A stretch of 64,000 nucleotides of DNA, taken from positions 4,154,001-4,218,000 of the forward strand of contig CM097888.1 of the NCBI GenBank assembly GCA_044892525.1. The letters run 5' to 3'. Of the stretch, positions 53,101 through 64,000 are shown one piece after another. Within the stretch, counting starts at the first letter, position 1. Each line of letters opens with the position of its first letter. Under the pieces are notes generated by a model. The model was not told where the DNA came from and made no database searches. It saw only the letters and a list, made by a program, of their open reading frames with translations. Both the position numbers and the translations under genes were made by a program. Origin of the DNA: Schmidtea polychroa. Its lineage: Eukaryota.

Positions 53101-53417
53101 TGTTACTTTAAAGTATAAACATTATGTTGAGGATACCTAAATAAAATTACCTGGGGGAAGATCGCAGTTTAGAAACCAATCAGTGATTGTGATCTTTTAA
53201 TCCGGTGTTATACACAAGTGCTATTCCTCACCGAGTGTTGTAATAAGCATTGTATAGTCACCAAGTAGAGTGTTGAATTTATCGTCCGTGTCAAGTGAAA
53301 GTTTGTTTGTGATTATCAATAAAGATTTCTGTTGTCAAGTGTTATTTGTGAATTATATAAAGACACACTTGGAGTCAGAGTAACATTAAATTTTATCACC
53401 AACTCAATAACACAACA
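53101..53417 (+). repeat. Candidate 5' LTR (left boundary uncertain)
   Basis: Ends ..CACAACA five nt before the PBS. AATAAA at ~53318. The TG start at 53101 is a guess because the 3' LTR is not in the window. Confidence 0.45.
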
Positions 53418-53422
53418 TATTT

Positions 53423-53440
53423 TGGTGAGCCCAGCGTGAT
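53423..53440 (+). promoter_or_regulatory. Primer binding site, tRNA-Trp type
   Basis: TGGTGAGCCCAGCGTGAT. Its reverse complement ATCACGCTGGGCTCACCA fits the tRNA-Trp 3' end pattern (ATCACGTCGGGGTCACCA) with 3 differences. Confidence 0.7.
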
Positions 53441-53625
53441 CAAAAGTTGGTGAAGAGATTGTGAAAATAAAGTGTGGTAAATTGAAATTATTAAAGTGAT
53501 TTTGGAAAGGTAAATTGTTTATTGTAATAATAATTTGAGATTTAGATTTTGTGTAATTTGAAAAGAAATAATTTATTAAAGTGAAACGATATTATTTACG
53601 AAGCCAGAGTAAAAAGGAAGCCATA

Positions 53626-55574
53626 ATGAGCAGTGAAGATTTACCAGTTTCAGTTATTAAAGAAAATAATGATTTTGCCAGTTGTCAAAGATTGCCACTA
53701 GAGCAATATGGAGGAGATCCAATTATATTTGTTGATTTTATGAGCGATTACTATATGTATGCAACGGCTTATGGATGGTCTCACGCAATCATGAGGTTTG
53801 GCAACAAATCGACAGGAAAACAATCGGCAATGATTGGGCCAAATTAAAAGATGCATTGGCTGCTAAACTTATTGGAGGAGATATAAAGAGATTAATGCGT
53901 CAGAAATTTTATAATAGAGTTCAAAATCCAAATGAAACAGTGAGCGAATTTGCTTATCATTTATCGACTCTTGTCAGCAAATTCTTTGAAGAAGATTCGA
54001 AACAACCAGGATTAGCCCAACAGATGCAGGAACTGATTCAAGATCAATTTTTGTCCGGAGTAAATAAAGAAATAAAAACGGCATTATGTTTTGTAGAGTA
54101 TGACAATTTCGATGAACTAGTTAAAAAAGCAATGAAAATCGAATTGAACCTAAAGAGCTCTAAAAATAAATCTGAGGTATTTGCAATAATTCCAGTACAA
54201 AGAGAGAGATCAGTAACCCCAACCCAAGGCAATTTGGAATCAGGAAATAGATTTCAACGATCAAAGAGTCCATCACCTAAATGGAGAAACGATAATAATA
54301 TGAACAGAGCAAGCCAAAATTCACCCGGCACTGAGAGAGCTAAAGTTATTCCACTTGATATTTGTAAGAAAATTAGCCATTATACAAATCAGTGTTGGTT
54401 TAAAAATAATTCTGAAAGAGTACCCAGGAGATTGAGTCCAGATTGGCAAAGAGATAATAGAGGAACGAATTTTCGGAGAGCAATTCCTAATGTGAAGTCA
54501 AATTTTAATGAAGTACAATGTTATCGCTGTGGTGAAAAAGGACATGTTTCTAGAAATTGTTTTTCAAGATCAAGATCACCATCAATGTCACCATCACCAC
54601 AAAGAGATAATGTGAATTTAAATGGACAAATTCAATGTCATTTATGCAGAAATTATGGGCATATTGCAAGATCTTGTCCCAGGAATTCCGATAAATTTCA
54701 AAGACCAATTTTGAAACGAACGATTAGATTTCAGGAAGAAAGCCACTCAAAGAATAATGTTGCTTATGTTCAGAAAGATAAATTTAGAGAAAAAATTGAG
54801 AACGATGTCAAACAATTGAATCAAAAATTGAATAAATTGATGGCGAAATTTGAATCAGATGAAGAAACAGATTCTCATATGATGACAAGACGAAAATTGA
54901 AGACAGATGAATCCAAACTTGATGATGTTACAAGAAACCGAGTTAAAACGGATATGCAAAGTGAAAAGAGTACAATACTTATTGCTAAGGTCAGAAAATT
55001 AGTAACAGAACCTGATGCGAATTCTCAGAAATTGACGGAAGTATTGATGAAGCTAACGGAAATACCGTTGAGTTTAACCAAAATTAAAACTGTTATTAAA
55101 CTGTGTACCGAATGTTATGCAGCAAGTGTGGAAAAGCGAGATGTATTTGAAAAGTATATGAAAGAATTTGGCCAAACTCCACGAAAAATCAAATGGTTAG
55201 ACCCGATATTTATTAAAACAAATACATTAGATGACACCAAATCCGAGTATCAAGTTGAAGCATACGGAAAAATACGCGAGTTGAAAAGAGAAATAATGCA
55301 CAAATGTGAAGTTTGGGCAGTAGAACTTAGATTTATGAATCGAGTGTTGGAAGACGACGAATTTTTGATAGATTGTGGATTGATCTCCGGCGTTGAAAAT
55401 GAGATACAAATAGTGAGCATGATTGCCAATGTAAAACCAGTCAAATATGATGTCAATAAAATTAAATTTGAATTAAATGAAGCATTGATCAATGGAGATA
55501 CAGGTGATATTATTGATAAATTAAATAATATTTTGAATTTAGAATATGAAGTGCAAGATAAATTAAAAATTTAG
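53626..55574 (+). pseudogene. Gag (capsid-like, RS/SP-rich, CCHC knuckles) extended by a helical region and ubiquitin-like domain 1
   Basis: EQYGGDP..F..Y..YATAYGWS, frameshift ~53790, W..LKDAL..F..RVQNPNETVSEFA..L..DQFLSGV. Knuckles CYRCGEKGHVSRNC and CHLCRNYGHIARSC. C-terminal IFIKT..LRFMNRVLEDDEFLIDCG. Confidence 0.85.
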
Positions 55575-55618
55575 ATTGTGTCAGACCCTATGTAAATTAT
55601 GATAATAAATATAGTGAA

Positions 55619-61150: not shown

Positions 61151-61238
61151 GTATCAATTACGATCAAAACAAAAGAAACTTAATGATGAAAAAATTATTC
61201 AACAAAAATTTCATAAAAACCCTACGCCATTGGGATAT

Positions 61239-62408
61239 ATGAACAGAGTTTTATTTATAACTACAGTCTTAATAAATATCATAGCAAATGCAAGTGGAAT
61301 AACAATGAATCTACCATATGCAGTAGAAAGAGTACCCTTATTGGATAAAATTTATATATATTCAACATTTACTAGTATTGAGTGTGAAATATCAGAACAA
61401 ATAGAAGTTAGTAATTTATTGAACCCTTTCGAACCATCTGTTACGTTGAATTATGAGAAAAGCATATATGTAGCTCGTCGATTGACAGCAAATTACAAAT
61501 ATCCTTGGACCATTAAACGATATACGCATTAAACAAATACTACTCAAAATATTTATAACCTTATACAAATTAACATTTGGACAAATGAATGGAGAAATTT
61601 AGTTGAAATTGAACCAATGATAAATGAAATTCACGTATATTGGAAAGCGGAAGAGCAACAGAAACTCAGAATTGTTTTTCAAAACATTACGATTGAAACA
61701 TTAAATAAAAGAAAATCTTTTGTTAAATACAAAAATTTACAAGAAAATCTCACTTACAGTCTTTCAATACATTATTACGAGAAACTCATTCATGACAATG
61801 GGACGTATATGAATAATCAATGGATAGAAGTGCAGAGTCAATATGAAGCAGTACACTTGGTTAACGAAACTAATCGAGTTCAAATAAAAATTGAGAACAA
61901 TGAAATAATTGTGTTACCCCAACCAGGCCTCAGACAAAGGGTAAATATTTTTGTAAATAATAAAATTCAGGTGGTGTTAGACGAATACCAACAAAGAGCA
62001 AAGTTGAGTACCTTGAACTCAGTATCTAATCCGAAACCAAGAAATTTCATGATCAAAATTCAATATTGCAAGCGAAAAGCGAACTCAGATCAATGGCAAG
62101 TCACTTTCATTGAAAATAGACATATTCATCTTCCTCATACTCAAACCATTGGAGAAATAATAAGTGATCATAATCTAACATTAACCGTAAAACCCTCATG
62201 GTCAAAAAACGAAAGCTTTTCACTAAACTGTAAAGAAAAATCATCTCATAACAATTGTGTCGAATTGCTATTCATATGTATCATTGTGGCAATACCAAGC
62301 GGTATCTTACTCATCTACATTGTTCTAATCTTGAGAAGTAATGACAATGACAATTCTATCTGCGACTATCAATATTCTGAGCCGCAGCAGTTAGAGACAT
62401 GGGTGTAG
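61239..62408 (+). pseudogene. Type I membrane glycoprotein with FN3-like segment (one in-frame stop at 61530-61532)
   Basis: Signal-like MNRVLFITTVLINIIANASG, multiple N-x-S/T sites, HVYW..KNLQENLTYSLSIH (FN3-like), TM LLFICIIVAIPSGILLIYIVLIL, and tail ending ETWV*. Confidence 0.6.
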
Positions 62409-62595
62409 TAAGATATGATTTCATTGCATGCTATTGATATCGTAGAGTATTTCTTTCTTTCATACCTTTTATAATTACATAAAAATGACTAATAGTGATC
62501 TTGTATTGTGATTATTCGTGATCTAAAATTAAATTAACCAAGGAATTAACCAATCAAATTACTGTAATTTGATTGGTTAAACGATTGCACTACTG

Positions 62596-63770
62596 ATGGG
62601 AGAGTTGGGATATAAGAGTATGGTTGTTTTCAGCGACTTGACAAAATTTTTAAAGAAGAAAACGAAGAAAAACAAAGAATATCAAATGGAGAAAATCAGC
62701 AGACCAGCGAAACTATATTCACAGTATCTTAGAGAAAAGAGAAGCCGAATAGAGAAGACATATGTAATCGAAGAGAATCTGAGAATCCCAAATTGGGCAA
62801 GAACAGGCAATGAGAAAATGAGGATATGTCTAATGGAGATCGAATGGAGATCAAGAATGAAAATAGCCGAATTATTAGTGAGGAAAAATGATGAAAATTG
62901 GGAGATCCATGTATTTAAAGGAATAGTGGAAATCGTAAACAATGAAGGAACCATAACCGGAACAATGCCAAACAATTCATCATGGAAAATTGATAAAGAA
63001 ACATGGCATAAACGTATGCGAGCAGCGAATAGAACCGCGTGGTTAGTATTAGAATGCCGCAGTAAAACGCCCACAAGTAACGCGGTAGAAAGAATCATCT
63101 AAATAGAAGAAGAAAATACCTTGCTCCCGATTACTGAGGAAATGTTGAAACACCGAAAGTCATTCCTAAGAAAATATTTAAACACTGAAGAAATCCGAAA
63201 AAATATAATATTCATGGATGCCGAATATAAAGTAAGTGAGGACAATAGAATGATCCCACTAGCGGTATGCCTCATCGAATATACCGGGAAAATAATCTAC
63301 AATGCTTTGATAACTCCGAGAGAAAAAATAAAAAACTATGTTACACAGGTTCACGGCATTACTGAAAAAATGTCTAGGAACCAAGAAGACCAATATGAGA
63401 GCCAAAGGAAAATTCAGGAACTAACAGCACGAAAAATATTGGTAGGACATGATCTACAAAATGAATTAAGGTATAGCGGAGTCAACCCAAATGATTTATG
63501 GGGAATTCGGGATCTGGCAGCAGCCCAAGCTCTAACGAAAAGGAAAATCACAAAGAATGGGCAATGGTACAAATTGTCGATAATTGCTCAAGAAATATGC
63601 CAAATATCAATGCAAAAGGGAACGCACTCGGCGAGAGAAGATACGGATGCAGTGAGACGAGTTTATTTGGCGATTGGGAAGATGATATAAAAGTGCCAAC
63701 GCGGATATCTCACTCCCTACAAGAGTATAGAACTCGCCAACTAATGATGAATCAAAAAAGGGGAATATAG
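62596..63770 (+). pseudogene. Unknown N-terminal domain plus REX4/ISG20-like DEDDh 3'-5' exonuclease
   Basis: 62596-63102 and 63121-63690 share a frame across one TAA. ExoI IIFMDAEY, ExoII ILVGHDLQNE, ExoIII HSAREDT. Probable frameshifted C-terminus to 63770. Confidence 0.8.
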
Positions 63771-64000
63771 TAAACTCAAAATCCCGGAAAAACCACAAGA
63801 GGAAAAAGCTGTGGAGATGCAAGAGATGGAAATAAATCTTCATTCCATCGAATCAATGAAAACCATCAAGAGATATAAAGTAACGATAACAATGGAAGAG
63901 GAATTAAAAATGGCCGGAAAAATGTAGCTTCGTATAAAGAGAATGGCAAAACGAAGACTCAAAGATATAGAAACCCAAACGGTAACTACGGAAACTTCGG

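Follow-up and report, generated by a model that had tools for sequence, protein, structure and literature searches.

Planarian Burro elements, which are giant and gypsy-like, encode a CCHC-type gag, a Ubi2/SUMO-like domain, a BCL2-like domain and a mononegavirus-like env, the latter in frame between gag and the protease (PR), reverse transcriptase (RT), RNase H (RH) and integrase (IN) of pol (PMC6431247). The B-IAP protein of Burro1 protects planarian stem cells, as cited in PMC13465017. Ty3/gypsy errantiviruses of the GAG-ENV-POL type with a gB-type envelope have recently been described in Platyhelminthes, six of them in Schmidtea mediterranea (PMC13524379; Chary & Hayashi, eLife 2026), and the long terminal repeat (LTR) retrotransposons Juno and Vesta of bdelloid rotifers carry a DEDDy exonuclease in an open reading frame (ORF3) downstream of pol (PMC5408684). 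The parts of PMC8532177 and PMC11410931 that were covered add no domain detail on Burro-type elements. Here we describe a related element at the end of a 64,000-nt stretch of the Schmidtea polychroa genome (GCA_044892525.1, contig CM097888.1, positions 4,154,001 to 4,218,000; the window). The original prediction for this DNA, an enveloped-type Ty3/gypsy retroelement, was borne out, since matching LTRs enclose the accessory modules, which are also found in other copies. Its suggestion of a probably undescribed architecture was not, because Burro (PMC6431247) and the gB-type errantiviruses (PMC13524379) were already in print. We regard the element as a probable compact member of the Burro lineage of Ty3/gypsy, with a likely single polyprotein of ~3,300-3,400 residues and two predicted surface glycoproteins, that likely spreads between cells in enveloped form.

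Boundaries, module order and copies of the element

The DNA from position 53125 onward is one decayed LTR retroelement insertion belonging to a multi-copy family. It had rightly been predicted as a single LTR element; its start is not at 53101 but at 53125, and with a total of 15,210 bp it ends ~4.3 kb beyond the window (last base L001:6334 in the neighbouring stretch). The 5' LTR (53125..53417, + strand, TGTTG...CAACA) has a length of 293 nt with an internal deletion of ~660 nt. Extension towards the 3' end, as had been proposed, revealed a 950-nt LTR (L001:5385-6334) preceded by a polypurine tract, and the target-site duplication ATTA is present at 53121..53124 (+) and again after the 3' LTR. 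The 5' LTR and the tail of the 3' LTR agree at 255 of 260 positions (98.1%). Duplications of 4 bp likewise surround the copies L039/L040 and L018/L020 as well as two solo-LTR-like matches. The tRNA-Trp primer-binding site (53423..53440, +) differs in two letters from that of other copies, whose form corresponds to the 3' terminus of tRNA-Trp(CCA) genes in the genome; the window copy's own form gave 0 matches to tRNA-like sites. The tRNA-Trp pattern itself occurs 856 times in the genome; of the 100 matches listed, most fall in a tandem tRNA-Trp gene array with a 284-bp period (G000:C4:55022433 onward, L069). Paired TG...CA LTRs, primer site, polypurine tract and a short target duplication, together with the order PR-RT-RNase H-IN, which is complete in copies L019 and L037, are those of Ty3/gypsy elements. 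BEL/Pao membership was discarded, since pol groups with gypsy-type rows.

In the window copy the coding DNA on the + strand is split into 13 frames by many stops and frameshifts. Contigs from three runs of unsure kind span this stretch and are uninformative as to transcription and splicing. Pfam, profile and structure matches nevertheless recovered all predicted modules in the predicted place, order and strand: gag, two ubiquitin-like domains (UBL1 and UBL2), a Bcl-2-like domain, a class III glycoprotein (G), PR, RT, IN and a fibronectin type III (FN3) membrane protein in ORF1, followed by a separate exonuclease ORF2. Window proteins were scanned against Pfam profiles, and E-values are from Pfam unless another search is named. 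Gag (53626..54700, +, frame broken near 53800) comprises a capsid region (Retrotrans_gag, 4.9e-5) and two CCHC knuckles (zf-CCHC twice, 5.3e-9). UBL1 (55150..55450, +) has, by eye, no C-terminal GG and matches ubiquitin at 0.01 in the window copy, under the curated cut-off, and at 1.9e-6 in copy L037. UBL2 (55562..55930, +) is its paralogue, ~30% identical, and a joint profile of both matches ISG15, ubiquitin and NEDD8 (best 4.4e-5). The Bcl-2-like domain (56230..56690, +) retains, by eye, a BH2-like motif and has no BH1 NWGR; of the BH1-BH4 motifs expected of the anti-apoptotic type, BH2 alone is recognised.

G (56740..58600, +, frameshifts near 56770 and 57130) begins with an internal signal peptide, has one transmembrane segment (TM) and is a fusion glycoprotein of the chuvirus/gB type, matching Monjiviricetes_fusion (PF24664) at 2.1e-70 and 2.4e-14. 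An errantiviral F-type env after pol was ruled out; the env of this element is of class III and lies in the gag-pol interval. A furin-like site in the G of the window copy is not kept in the sister families B and C described below. The aspartyl protease (59026..59320, +, DSG, 2.8e-9) is followed by a conserved PR-RT spacer domain (59350..59650, +), which is 27% identical to that of a giant element in this genome and has no Pfam match; by analogy, solely from its position in Burro (PMC6431247), it is provisionally termed dUTPase-like. As predicted, most of RT/RNase H is deleted. The N-terminal RT fragment (59902..60140, +) covers only 1-86 of 205 positions of the RVT_1 profile, and ~1.23 kb is absent at 60140/60141 in comparison with 4 of 5 copies, the fifth being without G and pol. 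IN (60141..61150, +, frameshift near 60680) has its HHCC, DDE core and C-terminal parts (Integrase_H2C2, 3.7e-16; rve, 4e-11).

The UBL2/Bcl-2 stretch has 477 candidate matches in the genome, and all 40 that were scored are 90-100% identical. We mapped seven other loci of the window family (family A), which were picked from the best matches and are thus biased toward carriers: six carry G and pol, and four hold every module in order between paired LTRs. Since this order is common to other copies and to two sister families, the cargo belongs to the element. The LTR pairs of the four complete loci are 99.7-100% identical, compared to 98.1% in the window copy; the family has therefore moved recently and the window copy is older. 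Two other copies with both ends mapped are 14.8 and 16.4 kb long, and the compact family ranges over 15-16.5 kb. Natural copies are open from gag to G (L015), from Bcl-2 to IN (L037) and from RT to FN3/TM (L019), so that ORF1 is one polyprotein and ORF2 is separate. Family B (G 79% identical, 3,334-residue frames) has the same layout without ORF2 in the two copies examined, and family C (G 76%) has the same layout including ORF2. G is the most conserved cargo between families (76-78% identity, dN 0.14-0.15). In every cargo domain dN is below dS, with rough A-C pairs of 0.43/1.34 for UBL2, 0.66/1.61 for Bcl-2, 0.50/1.33 for FN3 and 0.46/1.86 for the exonuclease.

The second membrane module, ORF2 and a shorter derivative

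The two last modules had been predicted as an FN3-like membrane protein and an exonuclease. Both are present; the former makes up the C-terminal end of ORF1, as copy L019 shows by its open frame with IN, and is not a separate gene, and the latter is part of ORF2. The FN3 module (61239..62408, +, in-frame stop at 61530) consists of a second internal signal peptide, an FN3-fold ectodomain, a TM and a short tail. The structure model of this region is weak overall (pLDDT 54), with two beta-sandwich domains predicted confidently and a third unsure; the two confident domains match FN3 proteins (Foldseek 4.3e-7), among them CD45 (Z 9.0, root-mean-square deviation (rmsd) 1.9, 77 aligned), and the Atlas FN3 matches are weak evidence. 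Hydropathy gives signal, TM, signal, TM in each of families A, B and C, and the part after IN is predicted to start with a signal-like segment and to continue as a glycosylated ectodomain with a TM. A hydrophobic segment after IN is also found in 8 of 9 further proteins of the clade described below (signal and TM both in 5), compared to 0 of 13 others, and one clade protein, P0015, has an Ig domain at this position. A signal-ectodomain-TM layout like that of family A is also seen at the end of the giant element and of a metagenome contig (L065). In the giant (Burro1-like, L043:3-2189) the ectodomain is Cys/Thr-rich, and section 7 of PMC6431247 makes no mention of this terminal module.

ORF2 (62686..64000, +, with its tail just beyond the window) is a separate frame of ~500 codons with stops in the window copy. 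Its N-terminal domain (about 62750-63070, +) is beta-rich and possibly cupin/double-stranded-beta-helix-like, with weak matches to cupins and to vaccinia C16; this call stays weak because the wide structure search was filled by exonuclease matches. The ISG20/REX4-like exonuclease follows at about 63200-63680 (+; RNase_T, 2.9e-6), and a C-terminal coiled-coil tail (+) runs slightly past the window end. The modelled exonuclease fold aligns with ISG20 over 159 residues (Z 16.7, rmsd 2.4). The ExoI motif D-x-E is present in all 7 rows covering it, and the H and D residues of ExoIII in 8 of 8; the ExoII acid is E in 8 of 8 ORF2 rows and D in ISG20. Model and residues together argue for a DEDDh exonuclease of the ISG20/REX4 group. 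Within family A, ORF2 occurs in two swapped versions (96-98% and 73-75%). At L016:4581-6053, L038:1757-3743 and L114, copies that are 94-99% identical upstream carry a 58-75% variant in the late FN3 part and throughout ORF2, a pattern suggesting that 3' modules may be exchanged by recombination. A relative lies downstream of pol in the metagenome contig L065, whose element bridges the giant and compact forms. The order in L065:3-11517 is pol, a second protease-like domain, ankyrins, signal-ectodomain-TM, two exonuclease-type ORFs and a UBL ORF; the first exonuclease-like ORF is by eye without catalytic residues, and the second has a Pfam match.

Twenty further copies were taken in rank order from the UBL2/Bcl-2 matches. 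In 15 of them G and pol are missing, and the signal segment of G is joined to the FN3 domains at one common breakpoint. At these derivative loci (L004, L104-L107, L110-L120) Bcl-2 and the G signal segment lead in frame into a diverged FN3-TM part; the frame is kept in all 7 scorable copies (5 of them stop-free; 8 were not scorable). Upstream, gag and UBL1 are present in 6 of 6 copies checked and the primer site in 5 of 6, and most derivative copies are without ORF2. The derivative is ~9 kb long, and its two measurable LTR pairs are 99.5 and 99.7% identical. Compared with the full type, its FN3 part is 75% identical in DNA and 53% in protein, with dN/dS of about 0.5. Exact-pattern counts in the genome gave at least 28 derivative and at least 16 G-type junctions.

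Place among described elements and neighbouring sequence

The RT-RH tree comprised 67 of 153 eligible rows, namely 9 local ones, the 40 closest proteins and every sixth of the rest; it is composed of genome copies and relatives, and the published S. mediterranea (Smed) errantivirus and Burro pol sequences are not among its rows. Families A, B and C grouped at 99 and were joined at 93 by the giant with MATH, ankyrin and BIR domains (16-row group). All 9 G-bearing rows of the 67 fell inside one 20-row clade (85). The Burro1-like giant has frames of 4,811 residues with MATH, G, pol and ankyrin, followed by TRAF and BIR-RING ORFs, and is a separate family, 51% identical to the window family in RT-RH. 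Profiles of Bcl-2, UBL1, ORF2 and FN3 had no significant match among the ORFs of the giant, and the UBL2 profile gave only a weak signal over its full length, located behind MATH (E about 0.09).

The window family shares the gag-env-pol order and a gB/chuvirus-type env with Smed_errantivirus_1 and _2 (PMC13524379), and its class III gB/chuvirus-like env between gag and pol makes it a candidate errantivirus of the GAG-ENV-POL gB type. By eye, the env of family B differs from that of Smed_errantivirus_2 at 5 of about 236 residues (~98% identical), as would fit a Schmidtea-like host, and the env of family C resembles Smed_errantivirus_1. Over this ~236-residue region the window family is 65% identical to B and 74% to C (RT-RH 83%); it is a third sister and matches none of the six Smed rows listed in PMC13524379. 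The main text of that paper has 0 mentions of Bcl, exonuclease, Burro, fibronectin, ubiquitin, immunoglobulin or accessory. As far as covered, it gives no tRNA for the Smed rows, whereas tRNA-Trp was found for the window family.

With Burro1/GYPSM1 and Burro-2 to -4 the family has in common one polyprotein with the same gag–pol module order (PMC6431247) and a pol clade that includes the Burro1-like giant; the single frame gag-UBL-BCL2-env-pol and the grouping of pol with the giant place it in the Burro lineage. However, it is about half the size, has LTRs of about 1 kb and is without MATH, TRAF, BIR or ankyrin, and going by the description of Burro in PMC6431247 it differs in its two UBLs, the FN3 membrane protein after IN and the exonuclease ORF2. 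Burro1 proper (>30 kb, ORF1 of ~4,800 residues, MATH/ankyrin/BIR) was ruled out by the 15-16.5 kb length and the lack of those domains. Like Juno and Vesta, the family has a DnaQ-like 3'-5' exonuclease ORF after pol that shows DEDD changed to DEED and is family-specific and optional (PMC5408684), but its enzyme is predicted to be of the DEDDh type, nearest to ISG20/REX4 and fused to a cupin-like domain, and the element adds a class III env. Thus, the core design is already published. The post-IN FN3 module, ORF2 and the ~9-kb Bcl-2–FN3 derivative without G and pol were not found described in the literature searched, which did not include the primary Burro papers (Grohme 2018 and Lee 2026 may describe the FN3 module or the exonuclease under Burro-2 to -4).

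Of the first 6 copies examined, 4 have Polinton-like ORFs next to them or within them (L002:198-4403, L005:33-2767, L010:1691-5797, L020:4028-5260), which may merely mirror Polinton abundance; these ORFs comprise a long ORF bearing endonuclease VII, a double jelly-roll capsid, an integrase with a PLA2-like domain and a protein-primed PolB. Elsewhere in the window, broken RT and GIY-YIG-like frames at 50995-51855 (+) look Penelope-type, and a fragment at 47985-48386 (-) looks like a Tc1/IS630-type DDE transposase, both by eye. An inverted-repeat element with 15-16 nt subrepeats occupies 42690-44290, and a block duplicated at 18550-21030 and 29763-33052 contains a 44-nt tandem array.

How the element may spread

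Judging from its four hydrophobic segments and from what is generally known of viral polyproteins, the product of ORF1 would cross the membrane of the endoplasmic reticulum twice, giving two displayed glycoproteins. Gag-UBL-UBL-Bcl-2 would stay in the cytosol, held at the membrane by a hydrophobic segment that also serves the fusogen as its signal peptide; the class III glycoprotein would be translocated and halted at its TM. PR, RT, RNase H and IN would again be cytosolic and released by the element's protease, and the second signal peptide after IN would translocate the FN3 ectodomain to form a type I attachment or adhesion protein beside the fusogen, or a receptor mimic. Signal peptidase and the element protease would cleave the polyprotein into these parts. 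The UBLs and the Bcl-2-like domain may modulate host ubiquitin and cell-death pathways. The optional ORF2 may act on RNA, either by trimming 3' ends or by degrading silencing triggers, and the ~9-kb derivative, which has neither fusogen nor pol, would depend on mobilisation in trans. Some viruses split fusion from attachment between two proteins, and the simplest reading would be an enveloped particle in which these two tasks fall to separate proteins.

Several observations weigh against this enveloped, two-glycoprotein reading. G was found in only 5 of the 20 further copies, in 4 of these neither FN3 nor ORF2 was seen in the 10 kb examined, and the commonest form of the family among the copies examined is without G. 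The Bcl-2 Pfam score (2.5e-4) is under the curated cut-off, and the Bcl-2 profile matches Bcl-xL (PDB) only over ~26 residues in the BH2 region (8e-4). No ORF2 was found in either of the two family-B copies or in any of the three giants examined, and the cupin-like call for its N-terminal domain comes from weak Foldseek rows. By hhalign the family-A FN3 region has no sequence likeness to the tails of the giant and L065, so that only the slot is conserved. Tails are shorter in the 13 control proteins (181-542 residues), of which 4 are outside the tree. The tree was a quick search with SH-aLRT support only, and dS is near saturation, so that the dN to dS ratios are rough.

Among the alternatives, the same element could retrotranspose only within cells or through direct cell contact, its two membrane proteins serving cell-cell fusion, adhesion or host manipulation with no free virion. 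Gag, Env and Pol in one frame are made in equal amounts, which is unusual for virion assembly, and the G-less derivative, with FN3 in frame, outnumbers G-type junctions (at least 28 against at least 16). However, no other cargo is as conserved as G, which has retained its signal, ectodomain and TM, and we consider such a purely intracellular or contact-dependent life rather unlikely. It is very improbable that the cargo is kept mainly for the benefit of the host, with the Bcl-2-like domain guarding stem cells: Burro1 B-IAP offers a precedent for such protection (as cited in PMC13465017), and the derivative retains gag-UBL-Bcl-2-FN3 and drops pol, but the copies are dispersed, young and often broken with no fixed single locus seen, the window family has no BIR, and BH1 of its Bcl-2-like domain is unrecognisable. 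That the accessory ORFs were inserted separately or are host genes fortuitously in line, which the lack of ORF2 in family B and most derivatives and its swapped versions in family A might suggest, can hardly be credited: several copies, and family C as well, keep these modules in one order and at one spacing within paired LTRs, and the junctions are in frame.

Going further than the enveloped, two-glycoprotein element itself, we tentatively raise the possibility, which we hold to be somewhat doubtful, that the Burro/gag-env-pol lineage forms a retrovirus-like group with two glycoproteins. Its pol would lie between a conserved class III fusogen and an exchangeable attachment protein of FN3/Ig fold at the usual env position, complemented by an RNA-erasing cupin-exonuclease and by a mobile satellite that keeps capsid, Bcl-2-like domain and FN3 in frame and borrows fusogen and polymerase.

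The family has separable modules, namely a fusogen, a second surface protein whose position is kept and whose sequence is not, and an optional exonuclease, and the natural derivative shows which modules are retained once fusogen and pol are lost. This bears on how env-bearing Ty3/gypsy elements outside insects may move from cell to cell, for which S. polychroa offers a young family in a flatworm that is likely tractable by RNAi.

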